A DNA stretch of 64,000 nucleotides, taken from NCBI GenBank assembly GCA_020137815.1, contig CM035350.1:3782001-3846000 (forward strand). Reading direction: 5' to 3'. Origin of the DNA: Hormiphora californensis (taxonomy: Eukaryota > Animalia > Ctenophora). Of the stretch, positions 6,466-38,385 are shown piece after piece. Every line of letters begins with the position of its first letter. Within the stretch, counting starts at the first letter, position 1. Position numbers and translations under genes: made by a program. Under the pieces are notes generated by a model that was given only the letters and a program-made list of their open reading frames with translations, did no database searches and was not told the origin of the DNA.

Positions 6466-7006
6466 ATAAGGAACCATAATAAAGTTCAAGAGCGCACCCC
6501 ATCCAAGAGCGCACCACCTCCAAAAGACACCACTTCAAGAGCGCACCACATCAAAGAGAGCTCCCCATCCAGAAGATACCGCGCGCAGGGGACACCACGC
6601 GCAGAAGAGACCGCACGCGCAAATACAACGCCGCGCTGGTCTCTTCTGCGCGTGGTGTCCCCTGCGCGTGGTATCTTCTGGATGGGGAGCTCTCTTTGAT
6701 GTGGTGCGCTCTTGAAGTGGTGTCTTCTGGAGGTGGTGCGCTCTTGGATGTGGTCTCTTTTGGGTGTGGTACGCTCTCAGGTGTGGTCTCTCTTCGATCG
6801 GGTGTGCTCTTGGGTGCTCTTGGAGGCTCTTGAACTTTAAAGTCGGATTTTTTGAAGTTGTCACCCCAAAATGACCGCGCATGTGAAATTTATGAATTTA
6901 AACGCGCACACGACACGTTAACATGTGATGTGACGCGCAAAAACATTCCGCGCACGAAGAGGGGGGTGACAACTTCAAAAAATCCGACTTTATTATGGTT
7001 CCTTAT
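6466..7006. mobile_element. TIR element (ATAAGGAACCATAATAAAG) carrying two tandem palindromic cassettes
   Basis: TIR at 6466 and inverted TIR ending 7006. Palindrome A at ~6481-6838 (AAAGTTCAAGAGC...GCTCTTGAACTTT); palindrome B at ~6839-6991 (AAAGTCGGATTTTTTGAAG...CTTCAAAAAATCCGACTTT). Confidence 0.8.
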
Positions 7007-7572
7007 GCGACTTATAAACATAAATTTTGTGAAAAATGGAAAAAAAGATGAAAGTTTCCTGATCACGAGAAAAAAATCATCTGCGCGCACACACAATTTT
7101 CTGGGTGAACCGGACACCCTGGGGTAAGTCGGAAGAACCTGTCCGTTCCTCTCATGAGCGCTCATGAGTGTATCATGAGTGTGTCATGAGTGTATCATGA
7201 GTGTATCATGAGCGCTCATGAGACGTTTTTAGGTGTTTCAACGTCTCATGAGCGCTCATGAGTGTATCATGAGTGTGTCATGAGTGTATCATGAGCGCTC
7301 ATGAGTGCTCATGAGACCTTGCTCATGAGCGCTCATGAGACATATGTCTCATCCCATCTCTGTTTCAATGTCTCATGAGCGCTCATGAGACGTTTTGACC
7401 TACATGTGCTCATGAGTGTATCATGAGACATGTCTCATGAGACATATGCCTCATGAGACGTTAGGGTTATGGTTATGGTTGGGTTTAGGGTTGGGCTAGG
7501 GTTAGGACTTTCCTTTAGGTCTAGGGACCCGTAGAGGGTAGGGCTAGGTCCAAGCCTATGAGTCAACCCTAA

Positions 7573-7615
7573 AGTTTCAAACTTTTCAACACTACTTTAA
7601 ACAAATTAATTTGAG
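7573..7615 (+). other. Spliced-leader (SL)-like exon sequence forming the 5' end of the LINE
   Basis: AGTTTCAAACTTTTCAACACTACTTTAAACAAATTAATTTGAG closely resembles, from recall, ctenophore (Pleurobrachia-type) SL sequences ending ...AATTTGAG. It is followed by CC, not a GT donor, so it is not an SL RNA gene. Confidence 0.75.
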
Positions 7616-7626
7616 CCTATGTAACT

Positions 7627-9087
7627 ATGGCTATGTCCATGTCTACCGGAAATCTCAAGGAAAATGACATTATCCTAGGGGAACTACTAAACCTAGCCGT
7701 CAACAATCCCAACGCTTTGAAAGTTCTCAACGCGTATGATCTTGAGGGCTCGTTTGAGGGTAACTTGGATACCTTGCGGAAACTCCCGGAGAAAGCCCTT
7801 GTCGCGGCATGCGCCCTACTCGGGTTGAAGCCCTTGATTGATGGAAGGAAGCGATATGGTTCCCGGACAACACTGGCAGAGTGGGTTATCATGAACATAT
7901 CCGTTTTGTTTGTGTATGACTGCGGCTCCTGTGGTAAGGAATATCAAGTTGATAGACTATCCGAACCAAAGATGAGATGCAGAGTGTGTGGACAAGGCAG
8001 CCACGACTGCGATCCTTTCTTGGAGGCATACGAAGCACTGGAGAAACTAAACGTGGAGGTGCCAGGGCTTTCTTGGTTATGCCATCCCTGTGCTCGTAAA
8101 AATCGTCTCGAGGCTTTCCCAGGTTACACTTACGGGGAATCAGACGATAAGGCGGCTGCAGATGGAGAGAGTTCGGACACTGAATTTCAGGACAAGATCA
8201 GTCCGGTCCAAGAGAAGAAAGGAAAACGTGGAAGAAAGAAGAAAGCCCCGATCGATGAGGAAGCGATCACGCCGGTAATTGGAGGTGACAACCAGCCAAA
8301 TCGCCGGGATCTGACACTCAAACTAGAGGGGAAGGATTCTGCTCCTGATGGAGATGGGGAGAAAACGAGCGAGGAAAAGGGCGATAAGAAGCCAGGAAAA
8401 TCCAGCTCTAAGTTTGAAAATGTGTGTGAAGCGTACAAGAAGAAAGCTTGCCCTCACGGGAGAAAGGGTGATAAACTTGTAAATGGGGTCGCCTGTTCGA
8501 AGAATCACCCAGTTTCTTGTACCAGATACGTATCACAGGGAACCATCAAGAGAGGGGGTTGCTCCAAGGGCAAAGACTGCAAATATTTCCACCCCCCAAT
8601 TTGCAGGAACTCGGAGATCAAGAGACAGTGTCTTGACCCTGATTGTGATAGGATCCATTTGAAAAGCACTCGCAGGAAACCTACCCCACCTGTAGTTACT
8701 GATCTGGATAAGGGGAATGCCGGAACATCCAGTAACAGCAAAACCCAGAAGAAGGCCGAACCCAAACCGAAACCCAACAAGAACGGCAACAACACGAAAA
8801 CGGGTCTGGTAGACCAGGATTTTCTATTGACTACCATGGGTACCCTTCGGGATGGGATGATGGAAGAGATGCTGGGGGTAATGAAGAAACTACTCAGGGA
8901 GGAAATGGCAGAGATCCGTTCGGTCCTCAGCCCACCTGGGGAATTGGAACGATTCCGACATCGCAGCTCCCCGGCACTGACGGTAAAGGGAACACCCGCG
9001 GGCTCCACGCCGATGAGCAGAAACGTGTCGTACGGGGACATAATAAAACGGTCTCAAAACTGGTTTTGCTCAACGCCAGGAGTCTAA
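7627..9087 (+). CDS. LINE ORF1 (486 aa): PHD-like finger plus three CCCH-type zinc fingers
   Basis: CGSC...CRVCGQGSHDC...WLCHPC is PHD-like; C..C..C..H clusters lie in CEAYKKKAC...H, CTRY...C...CKYFH and CRNS...C...CDRIH. PHD domains are known in CR1 ORF1. Confidence 0.88.
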   Translation: MAMSMSTGNLKENDIILGELLNLAVNNPNALKVLNAYDLEGSFEGNLDTLRKLPEKALVAACALLGLKPLIDGRKRYGSRTTLAEWVIMNISVLFVYDCGSCGKEYQVDRLSEPKMRCRVCGQGSHDCDPFLEAYEALEKLNVEVPGLSWLCHPCARKNRLEAFPGYTYGESDDKAAADGESSDTEFQDKISPVQEKKGKRGRKKKAPIDEEAITPVIGGDNQPNRRDLTLKLEGKDSAPDGDGEKTSEEKGDKKPGKSSSKFENVCEAYKKKACPHGRKGDKLVNGVACSKNHPVSCTRYVSQGTIKRGGCSKGKDCKYFHPPICRNSEIKRQCLDPDCDRIHLKSTRRKPTPPVVTDLDKGNAGTSSNSKTQKKAEPKPKPNKNGNNTKTGLVDQDFLLTTMGTLRDGMMEEMLGVMKKLLREEMAEIRSVLSPPGELERFRHRSSPALTVKGTPAGSTPMSRNVSYGDIIKRSQNWFCSTPGV

Positions 9088-12023
9088 CTCCCGCTGCCAC
9101 GAGTGACTGTCGATGGAAACTCTCCTATTTGACTGATATGGTGAGCAACTCCTCTGTTCCCGTTTTGGCAGCAGCCGTAACGGAGACTTGGTGGAAAGAG
9201 GAGTTTACTGAGGCCCAGGTAGAAATACCTGGTTTTTCAGTAGTTAGGAGTGATAGGAAGTCCCGTAAGGGAGGTGGATGTGCACTGTACGTGAACCAGA
9301 GAGTGACACCCACAGATGAATATATTTGGAGTGACAGTTGGTCCAACATTGCTGCAGCCTACGTTGCAGAATCACATATGGTGCTGGCATCTGTCTATCG
9401 GGCCCCAGGTTCCCAAATGTCTTCGATCCTTCACCGGCTACAAACCTTCATCGAAAAACACTCATCTGACCAGGTTTTTCCCGACGTTTACATTCTGGGG
9501 GATTTCAACTGCCCGGGTATTAACTGGTCAACACATTTTTCCTTAGACTCAAGGGAGTCGGAGCTTTTGGAGTTTGGGGATAAATACTTTCTATATCAAA
9601 TGGTGCACGAACCTACTAGAGGGGAGAATACTTTGGATATCATACTCACTAACAGGGAGGAGTATTGTGCTTCAGTTGGGGTGGAGGACCTTAACATCTC
9701 TGACCATTCAGTTGTCCAGTGTGTGCTGGGATTTGGGCTTGAGCCGGTCAGGGGGAGGCCAGCGAGGAATATGCAGGGCTTCGCTGGACTTGATATCCAT
9801 TCTGCTGACTTCGAGGCAGTCAATGCCGAACTACAAGGTGTAGACTGGGACGGTGTCCTGGATGGCTACTGTAGAGACGGAGACGGGTCGGACATTGTAC
9901 AGCGAATCTCAGAGGTGATTTTGCAGATCGTATCTCGGTATGCCAAGGTCAAGAGACGTGGTATTGCGAGGAAAGACCCAATGCTGAAACGGCTAAAGAA
10001 GAAGCAGAAAAAGTTAAACCGGGAAATCTCCAAGGCAAAGAATGCCAACTCATATGCTGGGCATATTGCAAAGTTGGAGAGGCGAGTTGCGAGAGTGGCC
10101 CTGGAAATCAGGTACTATCTTAACAGGCGAATGGACCAGGAGGAACAGCGTGCTGTGGAGATTATTAGGAGCAACCCTAAATTTTTCTGGACTTACACAA
10201 ATGACAGGAGGAAAACAAAGTCACGTATTCCTCCTTTGAAAAGGGCGGATGGGACTCTGGCAGAGGATCCTGGGGAAAAGGCTGAATTACTACAGGAACA
10301 GTATTTATCAGTCTTCAGTGATCCCGAACAAGTCGTGGTGGAAGATGCAGTAGGGAGTATATCCTTTGCAGGACCAACTTTATCTGACATCGAATTCACT
10401 CCATCTTCTATCGAGGCAGCTCTCAAGCTGCTCGATCCCTTCTCTGCTGGCCCACCGGGGGATATACCATCATGCATACTCCACCGGTGCCGATCAGCTT
10501 TGTCGTACCCTCTGTTTTTGCTGTGGAGGGATTCCTTTAATCGGGGTGTTGTCCCTAGCTGTCTTAAGCGACAATTCATCACTCCAATTTTCAAGAAGGG
10601 TTCCCGATCCGAGGTTGGCAACTACAGGCCTGTATCGCTGACGTCAAATATCATCAAATGCTTTGAGAGAGTGGTACGTGCAGGGCTCATTACCCACTTC
10701 GAGACGTGTGGTATCTTGAATGAGTCGCAACATGGTTTTAGGAGAAACCGTAGCTGTTTGACCCAGCTTATAGAACATCTCGACCGGGTTTTGCGTGCAG
10801 TAAGTGATGGTGATGAGGTCGATGTGATCTATCTAGACTATCAAAAGGCGTTTGACAAGGTCGATCACAGGGTCTTAGTGTCCAAATTGGAGAAATATGG
10901 TGTGTCAGGAAAACTGCTGGAGTGGATCAAGAACTTTTTACAGGATCGTGTTCAGACTGTTACTGTTGACCAGGTTTTCTCGAGCTTCAAGGAGGTTTTA
11001 AGCGGTGTCCCGCAGGGGAGTGTCCTGGGGCCCGTACTTTTCTTGGTCTATGTCATTGACCTTGAATCATCCCTGAGTTTTTCGGATGCTTTGACTTTTG
11101 CCGATGATACGAAGATCATTAAAGTTATCAGAGGAATCCTAGATCATGCAAATCTACAGGAGGATCTGTGTAACGTGGTGGATTGGTCGGTGTTAAACAA
11201 CATGACACTCCACGACGATAAGTTTGAGCTGGTGCGTTATTCACCACGCTCCAACAACTTAATGCGGGAGCTTCCTTTTACAGCGGGCTATCTCTCTTAT
11301 GAGACCCCTAGTGGAGTATGTTTGACATCTTCTCCGGTTGTAAAGGATCTTGGTGTTCTCCTGTCAGAGGATGGGTCGTGGAAGCCACAGATCGAAAAGG
11401 TATCTGCATCGGCATCAAGGGTTGCAAACTGGATTCTGGGGGCGTTCAAATGCAGATCAGTTAAGGTAATGATGACTCTTTACAAAACACTTGTTCGCCC
11501 AATCCTGGAATATTGTTCTGCAGTCTGGAACCCGTCATCGGTTGGTGAAATTGCCCAACTGGAGCAGGTGCAGCGAAATTTCACCAGGCGTATCCTAGGG
11601 TGTCAAAACTTGGACTACTGGGAGAGACTTGCTTTCCTTGATTTACAGTCCCTGCAGAGGCGCAGGGAGCGCTATGTCCTTATCCACATGTTCAAAATCT
11701 GTAAGGGACTAGCCCCAAACGGACCCGGTTTTGATTTCAAGGACACCCCTCGTTACGGGGCACGGGCAGTGATCCCAAAATTCAATCATGGGGCACAAAG
11801 GTCGGCGTCCACTATGTTTGAAAACTCTTTTTCGGTTCTTGGGGCGAAACTATGGAACACTCTTCCTAAATGTGTCAAGGACGCCGGGAATATCGATGAA
11901 CTCAAGGTTGTACTGGGAGGGTACCTCAGGGGCATTGCTGATAGACCACCAACCAGGGGGTACTCGTGTGTTCATGGAAACTCCTTGTTGGACTATGCCC
12001 TGAGCCGGGGCACGGACTTCTAG
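9066..12023 (+). CDS. LINE ORF2: APE endonuclease plus reverse transcriptase (frame open from 8736; listed start is TTG)
   Basis: APE motifs NARSL, VTETW, GGG.ALY, YRAP, GDFN, LD, SDH; RT motifs NYRPVSLTS, QHGFR, DYQKAFD, GVPQGSVLGP, FADD; CR1-type C-terminus LEYCSAVWNP. Confidence 0.95.
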   Translation: MLNARSLTPAATSDCRWKLSYLTDMVSNSSVPVLAAAVTETWWKEEFTEAQVEIPGFSVVRSDRKSRKGGGCALYVNQRVTPTDEYIWSDSWSNIAAAYVAESHMVLASVYRAPGSQMSSILHRLQTFIEKHSSDQVFPDVYILGDFNCPGINWSTHFSLDSRESELLEFGDKYFLYQMVHEPTRGENTLDIILTNREEYCASVGVEDLNISDHSVVQCVLGFGLEPVRGRPARNMQGFAGLDIHSADFEAVNAELQGVDWDGVLDGYCRDGDGSDIVQRISEVILQIVSRYAKVKRRGIARKDPMLKRLKKKQKKLNREISKAKNANSYAGHIAKLERRVARVALEIRYYLNRRMDQEEQRAVEIIRSNPKFFWTYTNDRRKTKSRIPPLKRADGTLAEDPGEKAELLQEQYLSVFSDPEQVVVEDAVGSISFAGPTLSDIEFTPSSIEAALKLLDPFSAGPPGDIPSCILHRCRSALSYPLFLLWRDSFNRGVVPSCLKRQFITPIFKKGSRSEVGNYRPVSLTSNIIKCFERVVRAGLITHFETCGILNESQHGFRRNRSCLTQLIEHLDRVLRAVSDGDEVDVIYLDYQKAFDKVDHRVLVSKLEKYGVSGKLLEWIKNFLQDRVQTVTVDQVFSSFKEVLSGVPQGSVLGPVLFLVYVIDLESSLSFSDALTFADDTKIIKVIRGILDHANLQEDLCNVVDWSVLNNMTLHDDKFELVRYSPRSNNLMRELPFTAGYLSYETPSGVCLTSSPVVKDLGVLLSEDGSWKPQIEKVSASASRVANWILGAFKCRSVKVMMTLYKTLVRPILEYCSAVWNPSSVGEIAQLEQVQRNFTRRILGCQNLDYWERLAFLDLQSLQRRRERYVLIHMFKICKGLAPNGPGFDFKDTPRYGARAVIPKFNHGAQRSASTMFENSFSVLGAKLWNTLPKCVKDAGNIDELKVVLGGYLRGIADRPPTRGYSCVHGNSLLDYALSRGTDF

Positions 12024-12439
12024 TTGCAAAGCCGAATGAGTTCAGAGAGGCTGAAGCGTTTATTTATAATGTGGATGTCTCGACATGACTGGTCAAACTA
12101 TTTTGAAGATTTGAAGATTTAACCTTATCCCTACGGGTCCCTAGACCTAAAGGATAACCCTAACCCTAGCCCAACCGTAAACCCAACCCTAACCCTAACC
12201 CTAACGTCTCATGAGACATATGTCTCATGAGACATGTCTCATGATACACTCATGAGCACATGTAGGTCAAAACGTCTCATGAGCGCTCATGAGACATTGA
12301 AACAGAGATGGGATGAGACATATGTCTCATGAGCGCTCATGAGCAAGGTCTCATGAGCACTCATGAGCGCTCATGATACACTCATGACACACTCATGATA
12401 CACTCATGAGCGCTCATGAGACGTTGAAACACCTAAAAA

Positions 12440-12506
12440 CTGTCAGGCCAATGCTCTGACCACAGTTCTCGCGCGCTCCGATAGGGTCAGGCCAATGCTC
12501 TGACAG
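12440..12506 (+). mobile_element. 67-bp mini-element (family M2) inserted in the right arm of the foldback
   Basis: CTGTCAGGCC...CTCTGACAG with 8-bp TSD CCTAAAAA (12432-12439, 12507-12514); absent from the left arm. Confidence 0.85.
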
Positions 12507-12817
12507 CCTAAAAACGTCTCATGAGCGCTCATGATACACTCATGATACACTCATGACACACTCATGATACACTCATGAGCGCTCATGAGAGGAACGGACA
12601 GGTTCTTCCGACTTACCCACCCTGGTCACGTCAAAATGCACTGTGGCGCGCGGAAGAACCCTCTTTATGCTCTGCCGTGCGTTACAGGTGCGCGCAGTGA
12701 ACCTGGGTGTCCGGCAGAGCTCCGGACACCCGGCTGCGCACAAATCCAAAATTTCGCAGTTTTCACTTGGCATGCGCTGCAGACCCCAAGTGCGCGCGTT
12801 TTCCACGGCTTCTAGGG

Positions 12818-12917
12818 NNNNNNNNNNNNNNNNNNNNNNNNNNNNNNNNNNNNNNNNNNNNNNNNNNNNNNNNNNNNNNNNNNNNNNNNNNNNNNNNNNN
12901 NNNNNNNNNNNNNNNNN
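12818..12917. other. Assembly gap (100 N)
   Basis: Run of 100 n; the true distance and adjacency across it are unknown. Confidence 1.
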
Positions 12918-33708: not shown

Positions 33709-36700
33709 CTAGATCATCCTCTCGATCACTCTGGGACTCACTCCTCGCTTTGTGAGTACATCAGCGGGGTTAGACTTCGACTCCACCCAGTTGATGGATG
33801 CTTCTCCCTTTTCGACCTTCTCTTGAACTTCACGTAGCTCCAAGATGCTTCCCTTATCGGTTGGTACAGCTGAGACGGAGTTTGCCAAACTCACAACTTG
33901 TGCGGAGTCTGTGTAAAGTCTGATGGGAGGGTCAAAAGATAGTTCCTGGAGGAGGGCTTTGATCATAACTCCATATCCCAATCCTTCAGATACAGCATAC
34001 AATTCTGCGGCAAAGACGCTCTTCACTACACGTTTTACCTTGCCACACGAGTAGGCGATCAAATTGAAATCAGAGCTGTCTCCCCAGAAAACTACAACTC
34101 CTGCTCCGCTCTTTCTGTCAGCTAGGTTGCCGAGACTGGCATCAGTGTAAACAATTATCTCAGCTGTGGTAGGGTTAAAAGGGGAAAAGGTTATCGTTGA
34201 AGGAGAAAGGTTGGTCACAATCTTCTTCAGTTCTTTGAACTCTTTGCCGGTCCAGGGTGATTTCGTCGTAATGTCAAGGAGACTGAAACTGATCTGTGGC
34301 ATACTTTGGGTAGCCAGCCAGTTCAACTTTCCGATCACCGTTCTCATATAGGATTGAAGATTCTCATCAACCTCTTCTTGATTCTGTGGTACCGGTTTAA
34401 CAGCTTTCATCTTGTCCAGGATATCCTCTCTCACAAACTTACAATACTGTTCCTGGGTTACACAAATGTCAATTCCTTGCTGTTTCAACTGCCATCCCAG
34501 GTAGTTGAATTCAGTTGTTTCAACTCTTCCTATCTTGTAGTTGTCAAGAGCGGGTTTAACTTTCTTGTAGAAGTTGTGATCACCAGTAATAAGAATATCA
34601 TCCACATGAATTACTAGTAATCCTTGTAGTTTCCCGTCATCTCCAGTGGTGAAAAATACATTCTTGTCAATTCTTGACATCTGGAGAGTGTTTTTCAAAG
34701 TTGCGGTGAGTGACATGTACCATCTTCTTCCCGCGTCACCAAGACCGTACAGTGGTTTATTTAGTTTCCACAGTACATCCTTCCTCTTGAGGTAAGCTGG
34801 GGGTTTGATGAACACATCTCTTGTCATCTTATCTGACTGCAGGTAGGCACTGGTTACATCAACACTTTTCAGGGTCCAGTTACTGGTAGTTGCCAAACTT
34901 AGCAAGATCCTCACTGCGTGTTTAGTAACAGTCGGTGAGTTAGTCGGGTCCTCGAGTTTTTCCTCAAATCCTCGGGCCACCAGCCTGGCTTTCACTGTGC
35001 CATCATCTTTCCGTGTCATCACCCATCTGGTGGTGACTGGTTGTTGTCCTGTATCGGGTACTTCCTCGAAAACATTGAATTCACGGAGTTTGTCAATCTC
35101 CCTATTTCGTGCTGTCTGCACTTCTTCCTTGCCCAGTTTAGATGCGGCAAGAAGAATGATCTCCTCAGCATCAGAATCGGGATCTGAGTCCTCTGTGTCT
35201 TGATCTGGGGTGTTTGCTGCGTCCTCTGTGGGCTCTGCAACATCCTCTTTTGGCGTTAACGTGTCCTCATTGGAGTCAGTCTTTTCCTCATTGGGTCTGG
35301 CGCTGTCCTCTGTGGGATCTGGCTCTATGTCTCTCTGACCAGGTGTATCCTCAGTATCCGGGCTGGTTTCACTTTCAGGAACTCTCACAACAACAGGTCC
35401 ACTTGTTGTGGCCTCATCCTCCTGCTGGTCCTCGGTTGGGACGGCTATCTCTGCATAAGTAGGTTCTCTGGGAACTTCTTCAATGTTACTCTCACTGTGT
35501 CCATCTTGTGGAGTGTCCTCTTCGGGATCTGTTTCACTAGGGATGAGTAATTCATCTGCAGGATGCTCTGGTGGGGGGATTTGTCGTCTGTTGTGCCGGA
35601 GATTGTATTTTCTGGTCGGTTCACGGACTGTCTTCTTTGGACGTCTGACTCTGCTAGCCTTCGGTGGCTGCAATTTAGATTTCTCTATCGGTTCCGGGAC
35701 ATCTTCATCAGTCGTCACTTCCGGTGCAGTCTGCATCTCGGGGACGTGTCTCTTGGAACTTGATTCCTCGTTTCGTTTGTACTCCTCTTTCCGTTGTTGG
35801 TCCTCTGGGGGTTCTTGTCTTTGTTGTACCAGTCTCACTTTGCATGGGTGTGCTCTTAGTAGTTGTCCGCCGTGTTTAATCAGTACTTGGTTCTCAGTCA
35901 TTCCAACTACAGTTGCAGGTCCCAACCAGGTCTTGTGTTGCTCACGTTTATAATACACCTTATCTCCCTGGACGTAGGTGGTCTGATCCTGTGTTGGTCC
36001 TGAACTTGCTAGAGCTCTCTTTAATCTGCTTGCATTCTCGAGTTGGATGAATTTCTCCCTGGCGGTCTTCATGGCTTTGATATTGTCTGAAATCACTTGG
36101 TCCTCACTCTTCTGGTCTCCATGGGCAGGTAAACAATCATCGTTCAGTACACTGGGGAAGGTAGGATTGCTCCCAAACACGAGTTGGTGTGGTGAGAATC
36201 CCATCTGGTTAGTCAACTGGTTCTTCGCATTGGAAGCCCAAGCACAAGCTACAGTTATACTGCACTTCGTGTCATCTTTGGTCTTCTCAACCATCTTTCC
36301 AAGAATACTGTTATGTCTCTCACAGATCCCATTGCACCAAGGACTTTCTGCTGGAGTAGACTTTAATTCGATTCCAAGTCTGCTCGCCATCTCAAGTAGG
36401 GTATCATTGATGAACTCGCCACCGTTGTCGCTGAGAATTCTCTGTGGACGTCCAAAAATGCTAATCCAGCTTGTGAAGAACTTCTGGGTGATCTCAGTTC
36501 CAGTTTTTGATTTCACGGGGACCATTACACTGTATCTGGTCAGTGTGTCAATGATGTGTAGTACCCAGCATGATTCTCCAGACTTGAACTTCAGCATCTT
36601 GAGATCCATAGCGAGACATTCGTTGAATGTTTTGCTGAGAGGTAAAGCTACTTTCCTCCGTGGTTTGGATGCACTGTGTTCGAGACAGTTTTCACATTCT

Positions 36701-38028
36701 TGTGTGACCCTGGTGAGTTCTTGACAAATCTCAGACTTTCGAGGGTGATCCGAGGATTTAACAATATCCTGGATCTTGGAGACTGAACCATGAGCAAAGT
36801 ACTTGTGGAGTTTCTTGGCAATTGCTGGAGGAGAGATCCCTGAACAAGAATTTGTTAACAAAGTAGTGGGTGAAAGCTTCTTATTAAGGTCAATTGTCAC
36901 ATGTCCAGTGTCAGTAAGATGTAATGTAGTTGTCTTACCCGAGACACGGAGTTGATCCCTCTCAAAGTCAATCACTGCACCCATCTGACTCAATAAGTGC
37001 CTGGATAGGAGAAGGGGAATGTTAATATCAAGAACATATACCGCAAACTCAGTAAACTTCACACCGAAAATATCAGTTGGGATATAAGCAATCATAGTAG
37101 AGTTAACTCCTGATAAATCACCAAATGTAAATCTTCTCTGTTCACATGATTCTCTTCTCACTCGAATACACGACTCTTTCTCAAAATTCTTTAACCAATC
37201 ACTGCCACACACACTCTTAGCGGCGCCAGTATCAAGCAACGCACGAAGTCCCACTTGCTCGGATAAAGACAAGACATAGTCCGTTTCAACGCTCATCTTG
37301 TACACTCCTGTGGCATCGCCACTCTGACCTCGTCGACCCCCAGATCCACGCTGACCACGTCCTCCACCACGTTTTCCCCGTACGGCACCACGCCGATTGT
37401 AACACTCAGAGGCAATGTGACCAGTCTTCTTACAATTGTAACAGACAACCAGAGTCATTGTTTCAGAGGTTTGATCGGTTTCAGCAGCTGAGGGTAGGGT
37501 CTCCCCATACGCCCTCTTCATCTGTGTGATCATGCATTCCAGACTGATTTCAACACAGGTAGCTCTGAGGAGTCGTTTCTGTTCATCGGAGATGTTAGAT
37601 TGTTCCAAAAGTCTGTAGGCTAACACTTGTGATCCATAGAGTTTGTGATGGTCATCGACTCCAGCCTGCTGTCGGAGCTCCCCAAGTCGGGTGGAAAACT
37701 CTGATATAAAATCTGACATGTTCTGATTAGCTGGTCTGATAAAGTTCTCAAAAGCTTCAATGGCGGAAAAGAGTGAAACAGTTTTGTCTCTGCCGAACAC
37801 TTTCTCGATGGCATCGAGGAGGATTTTAACACCGTTCTCGGACTTGAGCTGCTCGGTGGGTACGCCTAGGGCTACTTCCTTTGCACGTCCCTTCATTTGG
37901 AGAGCTAACCGGGCCGCCTGTTTCTCCTTGGGGCAGCCAGTACCTAACAGCCAGATGTCGACCTCACGGCGATAAGTCTCAAAGTTCGTTTTGTTATCAA
38001 AGACCGGGGCATGAATGTCGGATGGCAT
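33709..38028 (-). CDS. Copia gag-pol polyprotein (~1439 aa)
   Basis: CCHC knuckle CYNCKKTGHIASEC, protease LLDTGA, integrase HHCC plus D..D(SDNGGEF)..E(NGICERHN), RT KARLVARGF and HVDD, RNase H YTDAS...NPADVLTK. First ATG after the PBS is at 38028. Confidence 0.95.
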   Translation of the reverse strand: MPSDIHAPVFDNKTNFETYRREVDIWLLGTGCPKEKQAARLALQMKGRAKEVALGVPTEQLKSENGVKILLDAIEKVFGRDKTVSLFSAIEAFENFIRPANQNMSDFISEFSTRLGELRQQAGVDDHHKLYGSQVLAYRLLEQSNISDEQKRLLRATCVEISLECMITQMKRAYGETLPSAAETDQTSETMTLVVCYNCKKTGHIASECYNRRGAVRGKRGGGRGQRGSGGRRGQSGDATGVYKMSVETDYVLSLSEQVGLRALLDTGAAKSVCGSDWLKNFEKESCIRVRRESCEQRRFTFGDLSGVNSTMIAYIPTDIFGVKFTEFAVYVLDINIPLLLSRHLLSQMGAVIDFERDQLRVSGKTTTLHLTDTGHVTIDLNKKLSPTTLLTNSCSGISPPAIAKKLHKYFAHGSVSKIQDIVKSSDHPRKSEICQELTRVTQECENCLEHSASKPRRKVALPLSKTFNECLAMDLKMLKFKSGESCWVLHIIDTLTRYSVMVPVKSKTGTEITQKFFTSWISIFGRPQRILSDNGGEFINDTLLEMASRLGIELKSTPAESPWCNGICERHNSILGKMVEKTKDDTKCSITVACAWASNAKNQLTNQMGFSPHQLVFGSNPTFPSVLNDDCLPAHGDQKSEDQVISDNIKAMKTAREKFIQLENASRLKRALASSGPTQDQTTYVQGDKVYYKREQHKTWLGPATVVGMTENQVLIKHGGQLLRAHPCKVRLVQQRQEPPEDQQRKEEYKRNEESSSKRHVPEMQTAPEVTTDEDVPEPIEKSKLQPPKASRVRRPKKTVREPTRKYNLRHNRRQIPPPEHPADELLIPSETDPEEDTPQDGHSESNIEEVPREPTYAEIAVPTEDQQEDEATTSGPVVVRVPESETSPDTEDTPGQRDIEPDPTEDSARPNEEKTDSNEDTLTPKEDVAEPTEDAANTPDQDTEDSDPDSDAEEIILLAASKLGKEEVQTARNREIDKLREFNVFEEVPDTGQQPVTTRWVMTRKDDGTVKARLVARGFEEKLEDPTNSPTVTKHAVRILLSLATTSNWTLKSVDVTSAYLQSDKMTRDVFIKPPAYLKRKDVLWKLNKPLYGLGDAGRRWYMSLTATLKNTLQMSRIDKNVFFTTGDDGKLQGLLVIHVDDILITGDHNFYKKVKPALDNYKIGRVETTEFNYLGWQLKQQGIDICVTQEQYCKFVREDILDKMKAVKPVPQNQEEVDENLQSYMRTVIGKLNWLATQSMPQISFSLLDITTKSPWTGKEFKELKKIVTNLSPSTITFSPFNPTTAEIIVYTDASLGNLADRKSGAGVVVFWGDSSDFNLIAYSCGKVKRVVKSVFAAELYAVSEGLGYGVMIKALLQELSFDPPIRLYTDSAQVVSLANSVSAVPTDKGSILELREVQEKVEKGEASINWVESKSNPADVLTKRGVSPRVIERMI

Positions 38029-38044
38029 AATGTCGTCAGCTTCA

Positions 38045-38053
38045 CTGCTACCA
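38045..38053 (-). other. Primer-binding site (tRNA-iMet-like)
   Basis: Minus strand TGGTAGCAG 1 nt after the 5' LTR, complementary to the ...CTGCTACCA 3' end of animal tRNA-iMet; typical of GalEa elements. Confidence 0.85.
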
Positions 38054-38054
38054 C

Positions 38055-38385
38055 TGTCAATATGATGTTGGGAAGGTGTTTGGAATGGGAAGGTGGACGA
38101 ATGGAAACACGGTAGATAACGGGTGGTTAACAAAATAGACGGATCAGGTAGTACAACGTTAAGGTAGTTCGATATTGGGAATCTGACAAAGTGCTTGTCA
38201 ACTTAAAACTCACTCATCTTCACAAAAAGCACGTGCGCGCACTTGAAAGGTGCATTTCAAGTGCGTGCACAAAAGTGTCACATACTAATGATCAGTTCGC
38301 GCGTTACGTCCGGTAGGCGGTAACAACTGCGACAGTGTGTCCCACAGAACAATACACTCAATCTCATGACACACAGCTCATGACA
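38055..38385 (-). repeat. 5' LTR of the copia element
   Basis: Direct repeat of 33089-33419. Confidence 0.95.

Follow-up and report, generated by a model that had tools for sequence, protein, structure and literature searches.

A conserved slippery heptamer and the probable production of ORF2 by -1 frameshifting in a CR1-group LINE of Hormiphora californensis

The DNA analyzed here is a stretch of 64,000 nucleotides (the window) from the ctenophore Hormiphora californensis (assembly GCA_020137815.1, contig CM035350.1, positions 3,782,001 to 3,846,000 of the forward strand). It contains an intact long interspersed nuclear element (LINE) of the CR1 group with two overlapping open reading frames, ORF1 and ORF2. 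As judged from comparative sequence evidence, ORF2 would most probably be made by -1 ribosomal frameshifting at the heptamer G_GAU_UUU (8817-8823), yielding a fusion to ORF1 as proposed in the preliminary description of this DNA.

The junction of ORF1 and ORF2

The junction comprises the following features, all on the plus strand.
7627-9087: ORF1 (486 aa), an N-terminal helical domain followed by zinc regions, a helix (residues 397-434) and a disordered tail
8733-8735: TAA, final stop of the ORF2 frame (organism B, a sister species, has a later TAA at 8790-8792)
8736-12023: ORF2 frame with apurinic/apyrimidinic endonuclease (APE), reverse transcriptase (RT) and C-terminal domain; first ATG at 9138
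8817-8823: slippery heptamer G_GAU_UUU, predicted -1 shift site, in CAG GAT TTT (Q-D-F)
8824-9047: dual-coding region; frame 0 encodes the helix and tail of ORF1, and the ORF2 frame a linker of about 75 aa under loose constraint
8834-8855: candidate hairpin of the preliminary description, not supported as a stimulator when its folding is compared with shuffles
9048-9074: first beta-strand of APE, its last residue being the motif-I Asn; starts at ACG in good Kozak context

That the ORF2 frame is open directly after TAA 8733-8735, one base back from ORF1, can be read off the sequence, and the overlap of the two frames, previously put at about 350 nt in the -1 frame, measures 352 nt. The absence of an ATG before 9138 was also borne out. 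This codon lies downstream of LLNARSL at 9066, 22 codons past the motif-I Asn and inside the APE domain; stop-start reinitiation would place it at or directly behind the ORF1 stop, ahead of the endonuclease. Since 9048-9074 encodes the first beta-strand, an AUG start at 9138 would deprive the enzyme of strand 1 and of the motif-I Asn. In a profile alignment, KLVLLNARSL of ORF2 was aligned to L1 ORF2p from residue 7, the first strand corresponding to residues 7-14 there, and in an AlphaFold model 9048-9074 corresponds to strand E5-13 with a mean pLDDT of 91.7. For Zorro3 it was reported that the exchange N17A at a conserved endonuclease Asn reduced retrotransposition to less than 5% (PMC1965478; here and below, statements from the literature refer to the available parts of the cited papers), and N17 would be the same Asn as the motif-I Asn of this element. 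The starts called in the 11 closest ORF2 proteins are located downstream of the motif-I Asn in nine cases, two residues before it in one and further upstream in another; these are gene-caller starts in proteins that come without DNA.

Within the overlap, GGATTTT is in phase with ORF1 (CAG GAT TTT CTA, Q-D-F-L) and fits the X_XXY_YYZ pattern of programmed -1 frameshift sites. GGAUUUU is indeed a working viral heptamer, a natural shift site used by pea enation mosaic virus, and G_GA is among the variants listed (PMC5009743). The heptamer alone is unremarkable, the chance of finding one anywhere in the overlap being about 0.47. The -1 frame between the heptamer and the APE motif, on the other hand, is open with a chance probability of P=0.016 under synonymous recoding. 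In this interval none of the 10 stop-creating synonymous options is used, versus 29 of 92 upstream, where 29 -1-frame stops occur in 369 codons.

The best match to ORF1 was a Pleurobrachia bachei gene model (86% identity), and six of seven ORF1 matches, down to 49% identity, retain VDQDFL directly after a variable linker. At the nucleotide level, DNA contigs from sequencing runs of organisms A and B were compared, the region 8725-9145 being covered by three runs. The heptamer zone 8806-8825 was free of variants among 40 of the 43 variant rows in this region, and in three contigs spanning the heptamer every difference lies elsewhere (X15 18/18, X5 1/1, X1 4/4). One lineage carries changes silent in ORF1 at 8802, 8805, 8826, 8827 and 8832, flanking the heptamer on both sides. 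The preliminary description had named synonymous loss of the heptamer, a fused ORF and an upstream AUG as findings that would speak against frameshifting; no change of the heptamer was found among the variants listed, and neither a fused ORF nor an upstream AUG is present in the contigs of organisms A and B. In the main haplotype of organism B, 8790 C>T creates a -1-frame TAA that ends 24 nt before the heptamer, and downstream of the heptamer no variant listed for this organism creates a stop or an ATG. A single ORF broken by a sequencing frameshift was ruled out since both frames are constrained and no indel occurs in the other runs; within 8725-9145, neither indels nor joints are listed in the three DNA runs.

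The distribution of constraint changes towards the end of ORF1. While 13 of the 22 variants in 8824-9044 are silent in ORF1 and five are silent in ORF2, one of the four variants in 9045-9087 is silent in ORF1 and all four are silent in ORF2. This rise of ORF2-frame constraint from about 9045 favors an L1-like termination-reinitiation at a non-AUG codon, by which ribosomes would finish ORF1 at 9085-9087 and restart at ACG 9048 to produce a separate ORF2p, the x-F-L motif at the heptamer being a helix cap. The ACG at 9048, with an A at -3 and a G at +4, opens strand 1, lies 37 nt before the ORF1 stop and shows no change among the variants listed. Furthermore, the L1 ORF2 start tolerates any sense codon (PMC1965478), and both SART1 and L1 are described as employing termination-reinitiation (PMC5972666, PMC2881922). 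However, such a restart leaves the slippery codons unexplained, as well as the long open -1 frame, which opens just before the heptamer in four elements (see below), and we consider it unlikely. CTG 9060 as a near-cognate start was ruled out because all three runs covering the position have CTT.

It is also conceivable that ORF2 is freed or joined by RNA processing, either because the leader is trans-spliced to an acceptor in the overlap or because ORF1 is cis-spliced into the ORF2 frame. In favor of this, the element demonstrably has a leader cap and contains seven YAG sites in 8793-9074. However, with the leader joined to any of them, the ORF2 frame would still offer no AUG ahead of the APE motif, as the next AUG is in each case in ORF1 or in the third frame. 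In addition, neither joints nor leader-bearing loose ends are listed for 8725-9145 in the three DNA runs, and the heptamers would be left unexplained. Trans-splicing, which had been named earlier as an argument against the frameshift, is thus very unlikely, as is RNA processing in general.

Heptamers in distant relatives

For a comparison of distant ORF1 families, a profile search was performed that gave 2,680 clusters at E<=0.001, the best 150 of which were used. Among 157 sequences, the zinc-finger anchor together with a tail of 110 aa or more was present in 139, and 132 remained after removal of the window's own ORF1 and six further ORF1 matches. These 132 rows are independent clusters at 50% identity; one row was moved by one column by hand. 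At the column aligned with the heptamer, Phe is present in 115 of the 132 families. It is preceded by S (36), D (26), H (20), A (11), N (8), P (7), T (3), Y (2) or G (2), and never by K, Q, E, M or W, none of which has a U-ending codon, although about 27 such cases were expected. These five residues account for 23% of the five positions preceding the pre-Phe residue and are found in 54 of 153 other x-F-L motifs of the same proteins. The bias is also seen in residue pairs (H:Q 20:0, D:E 26:0, N:K 8:0). Phe is followed by Leu in 107 of the 115 families and by Phe in two; of the six rows with neither residue, five have D-F, as in the G_GAU_UUU register (Fisher p=0.002). This is the pattern that U_UUU_UUR would produce, with G_GAU_UUU as an alternative register. 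Rows with S-V-F (6) could encode G_GUU_UUY and K-N-D rows A_AAA_AAY. In an alignment of 39 sequences chosen for the motif (26% mean identity), F-L is invariant alongside the zinc ligands.

The DNA of such relatives was read only after the heptamers had been predicted from the protein pattern. Two elements with this ORF1 (L011, L019) were among 80 LINE loci from host DNA in bacterial metagenome-assembled genomes (MAGs), and whole-genome searches (1,107 genome slots, some repeated) added L088 and L089 only. All three two-frame relatives, whose ORF2 is 25-31% identical to that of the window, have -1 overlaps of 157-199 nt. At the predicted position, L011 contains ACT TTT TTA (U_UUU_UUA), 9 nt after the last -1-frame stop, L088 TCT TTT TTG (U_UUU_UUG), 18 nt after it, and L089 GAG GAT TTT (G_GAU_UUU), 0 nt after it. 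By their own codon usage, slippery codons would occur there by chance with probabilities of 0.055 (L011), 0.059 (L088) and 0.093 (L089), jointly about 3e-4. In all four elements, the window included, the -1 frame is open for 46-83 codons before the APE motif (P 0.02, 0.026, 0.078, 0.0025), and L011 and L088 have no AUG before this motif. A slippery heptamer is thus retained at the corresponding codons of distant families, as had been suggested earlier as a check, and it is retained beyond the need of the protein.

In the fourth relative, L019, which we also count in favor of the shift, the run comprises seven T instead of six, and at precisely this point the two frames are fused, the zinc fingers leading straight into the endonuclease; the ORF1-type helix remains in the other frame. 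Due to this element, it has to be considered that the U-run is prone to indels when the element is transcribed or reverse-transcribed, and that such slippage provides in-frame templates, the active elements being the fused ones. However, the run of the window comprises only four T, no run lists an indel in 8725-9145, and four of the five DNA examples are two-frame elements, so that this explanation is highly improbable. The additional T of L019 could as well be an assembly error or mark a dead copy.

Besides ACG 9048, several further points weigh against a -1 shift at the heptamer. A stable stem-loop 5-9 nt downstream was not detected: the self-complementary words noted earlier are present (CCAT 8834-8837, ATGG 8852-8855) but their fold is no more stable than that of shuffled sequence, with z +0.43 for 8824-8920 and z -0.29 to +1.76 across 14 windows (nested pairs only), and the hairpin 8834-8855 was therefore ruled out as a stimulator. 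Nor was a stable 3' fold found in any of the four two-frame elements (lowest z -0.99). G-runs 3' of the heptamer could form a quadruplex; none of L011, L088 and L089 shares them. Seventeen of the 132 families lack the Phe. The x-F-L motif also opens the predicted ORF1 helix 397-434, and a preference for helix capping probably contributes to its conservation; an N-cap preference could account for S, D and N before Phe, but neither for H (20), A (11) and T (3) nor for the codons observed. L089 carries two ORF2-frame AUGs before the APE motif. Finally, L011, L019 and L088 share a branch, and the two MAGs from which they derive have names of similar construction, so that these elements are not fully independent. 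A quick tree requires four changes for the five heptamer-bearing CCCH elements; as most other junctions in it were unread, it was not used as evidence.

For frameshifting at the heptamer, the proposed sequence of events is as follows. The leader-capped bicistronic RNA would be translated from 7627, and the majority of ribosomes would complete ORF1. A minority would slip after ...V-D-Q-D-F and read on as S-I-D-Y-H..., giving a predicted product of 1,465 aa which would comprise the ORF1 zinc fingers, the linker, the endonuclease and the RT and exclude the C-terminal helix of ORF1. The frame layout, the missing AUG, the conserved heptamer and the stop positions are the observations from which we infer the slip, its rate, any stimulator and the fusion protein. 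Since no folded 3' stimulator was found, the shift would be of low efficiency or aided by something unseen here.

Eleven LINE junctions were compared, nine of which have other ORF1 types. The ORF1 of the L008 family (also L041), which we take to be esterase-like by its motif, ends on U_UUA_AAC_UAG followed by a G-run (L008:3635-3644), and no AUG precedes the APE motif. U_UUA_AAC_UAG is in phase in seven of ten L008-related loci, one base out in L024 and absent in L015 and L021. L023, with a third ORF1 type (L023:1069-1150), shows A_AAA_AAC 6 nt into the -1 overlap and, some way 3' of it, a hairpin (z -3.6 at 70 nt, +0.6 at 40 nt). L016 possesses a heptamer and upstream AUGs too, and in L005 and L022 a +1 arrangement without heptamer was found. 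As far as can be judged from these predicted sites, the heptamer feature is wider than the PHD/CCCH type of ORF1, yet not universal.

Other searches contributed little. A metagenome scan with the APE alignment reduced 59 candidates to one locus, L001, which is a bacterial ORF without relation to them; viral scans were uninformative apart from two weak RT loci without ORF1 match, a phage tblastn search had zero matches, the leader pattern was not matched in viral and genome contigs, and the Atlas search returned a 0.85 lead only. L017/L087 was left out as a relative because of a different ORF1, matched weakly via the PHD-like region only. Eukaryote-type LINE contigs (L004-L083) occur in many bacterial and archaeal genome records, some of them isolate assemblies, and probably derive from a host or from contamination. 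More than 20 of the 80 loci stem from a single Metamycoplasmataceae record of 17.8 Mb.

The element, its leader and its surroundings

The remaining parts of the element and its host repeat are as follows.
7573-12119, plus strand: whole LINE, with TAA target duplication and two TTTGAAGA repeats at the 3' end
7570-7572 and 12120-12122 (second copy), plus strand: target-site duplication TAA
7573-7615, plus strand: spliced-leader exon forming the 5' end of the LINE, exact leader match
ORF1 residues 99-155: PHD-like Cys/His cluster
ORF1 residues 267-344: CCCH-type zinc-finger array
about 10593-11237, plus strand: reverse transcriptase within ORF2 (Pfam RVT_1)
12024-12119, plus strand: 3' untranslated region with two TTTGAAGA copies at 12102-12117, a CR1-like tail without poly(A)
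7123-7569, no strand assigned: left arm and centre of a host foldback, a miniature inverted-repeat transposable element (MITE), with an 8-bp duplication CACCCTGG at 7115-7122 and 12618-12625
12123-12617, no strand assigned: right arm of the host foldback, with a nested 67-bp MITE (12440-12506)

ORF2 matches Pfam RVT_1 (E 5.8e-23) and Exo_endo_phos_2 (E 1.8e-10), with the APE endonuclease preceding the RT as in the CR1 group. CR1-group 3' ends have short tandem repeats, no poly(A), and a short target duplication or none. The two TTTGAAGA copies, the absence of poly(A) and the TAA duplication agree with this rule. The label of the CR1 clade rests on the C-terminal motif LVRP.LEY....W.P, present in ORF2, which we assume to be diagnostic; named CR1/L2 references are absent from a quick RT tree of 64 rows. 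The ORF1 of the window has no Pfam match at E<=0.01 and no Foldseek fold match at E<=0.001, and among its homologues the Pfam matches are weak (zf-CCCH_2 in 11 of 100, PHD in 1 of 100). Domain and fold searches matched neither RRM, CCHC nor esterase in ORF1. With a PHD-like cluster and a CCCH array, it does not fit cleanly into ORF1 types I-V (RRM+CCHC, L1-type, PHD(+RRM), esterase) as given in the available part of PMC4120745, where the terms CCCH, frameshift and ctenophor had no match. Frameshift, CCCH and overlap were likewise without match in the available part of PMC13343379. One X15 contig (depth 42) has ORF1 joined in frame to the RT region (M-E-Q-Y-L...) at 8839/10297, the endonuclease being missing; this joint was seen in a single contig only, and its ends are one base off GT-AG.

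The sequence 7573-7615 matches nt 2-44 of the Hormiphora leader exactly (PMC8527503) and is the only copy of the leader in the window. Together with the Pleurobrachia bachei match of ORF1, it points to a pleurobrachiid ctenophore as the likely host. The leader stands right at the 5' end of the LINE and within the target duplication, as in a retrocopy of a trans-spliced RNA. The main contig of run X5 contains the leader with 41 additional nucleotides ending in AG, followed by position 7616 of this copy, while in the window the leader is joined directly after that AG. We read this placement as the use of two trans-splice acceptors; the alternative is a deletion between short AGC repeats. As only about 50 nt separate the leader from ORF1, the element probably lacks a promoter.

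The LINE is inserted at the centre of the foldback 7123-12617, whose inverted arms are 98-100% complementary. Empty-site joints in the run contigs, 7114>12618 (both=8) and 7569>12120 (both=3), assign the inverted repeats to the host MITE, and they were thus ruled out as part of the LINE. The foldback contains internal repeats of the TCATGAG type and telomere-like repeats near its centre. The 67-bp MITE in the right arm is present in high copy number, has CTGTCAG/CTGACAG ends and an 8-bp duplication of its own, CCTAAAAA, and is presumably hAT-like. Upstream, palindromic repeats at 6496-6754 and 6838-6992 (117-nt and 30-nt arms), the second of which shows very high depth in the runs, are probably other MITEs. 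An assembly gap of 100 N lies at 12818-12917, 200 nt downstream of the host MITE. The window also contains an open frame of 1,497 aa on the minus strand (33709-38202) with zinc knuckle, integrase and RVT_2, apparently an intact Ty1/copia element.

Relation to known systems and implications

Frameshifting by -1 is a known recoding mechanism, proposed here for a class of elements in which its use is not established. In HIV gag-pol (U_UUU_UUA) and in umbraviruses and dianthoviruses (G_GAU_UUU), the heptamers are identical to those of these LINEs and likewise in phase, and an RNA-binding protein is fused to a polymerase in the -1 frame, as predicted for the LINE (PMC5009743). By contrast, the viral systems use a 3' stem-loop or long-range pairing, which was not detected here, and the element is a non-LTR retrotransposon. 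That LINEs employ termination-reinitiation, as stated before, holds for L1 and SART1 but not for TRE5-A and TRE3-A of Dictyostelium, for which a -1 shift is stated to be required for ORF2. These elements resemble the LINE studied here in being APE-type non-LTR elements with overlapping ORFs; they differ in lineage, in targeting tRNA genes and in their oligo(A) tail, and the relevant passage names neither heptamer nor assay (PMC5911963). For Paramecium elements, a +1 shift or reinitiation was suggested (PMC5405496). L1 and SART1 share with our element a bicistronic RNA in which ORF2 depends on ORF1 translation; however, they have a spacer with AUG or a stop-start overlap, unlike the long overlap without AUG before the endonuclease described here. 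With CR1-group LINEs (Jockey superfamily), the element has in common an ORF2 with APE and RT, a short tandem-repeat tail and a PHD-like cluster in ORF1. NeSL, SLACS and CZAR target leader genes, whereas this LINE sits in a MITE. About 30% of the Iso-Seq reads of Hydra transposable elements carry a spliced leader (PMC12220107), which is akin to the leader at the LINE 5' end except that the latter is fixed in a DNA copy. No paper on frameshifting in CR1-group LINEs or on this ORF1 type was found in a search that did not extend to most subscription papers and Repbase, and a leader-headed genomic LINE in ctenophores was not found in the literature search either.

A wider proposal is offered tentatively, the chances being slightly below even. 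Much of the CR1 group might normally obtain ORF2p by a -1 shift without folded stimulator, whichever of several unrelated kinds of ORF1 is present (PHD/CCCH, esterase-type L008/L041 and L023), so that the RT would be fused to ORF1. The element of ctenophores might in addition be promoterless and be cut from host transcripts by leader trans-splicing that re-uses the AG ending its DNA-encoded leader, and such LINE heads might form part of the hundreds of genomic leader copies.

The translation route of LINE ORF2 is settled for a few AUG-bearing elements only (L1, SART1), and many CR1-type ORF2s have no start codon ahead of the endonuclease. Should the -1 shift be true, the start of ORF2 would be misannotated in these elements, and the enzyme actually made would include the ORF1 zinc fingers. 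Frameshifting would offer a simple route to cis preference and to the ratio of ORF1 to ORF2, single-ORF fused LINEs would arise by a one-base change as in L019, and there would be a large natural set of -1 sites apparently working without a hairpin. A defined site of 7 nt makes the question of ORF2 translation directly testable, and the leader-capped 5' end links the propagation of a LINE to trans-splicing in an animal.

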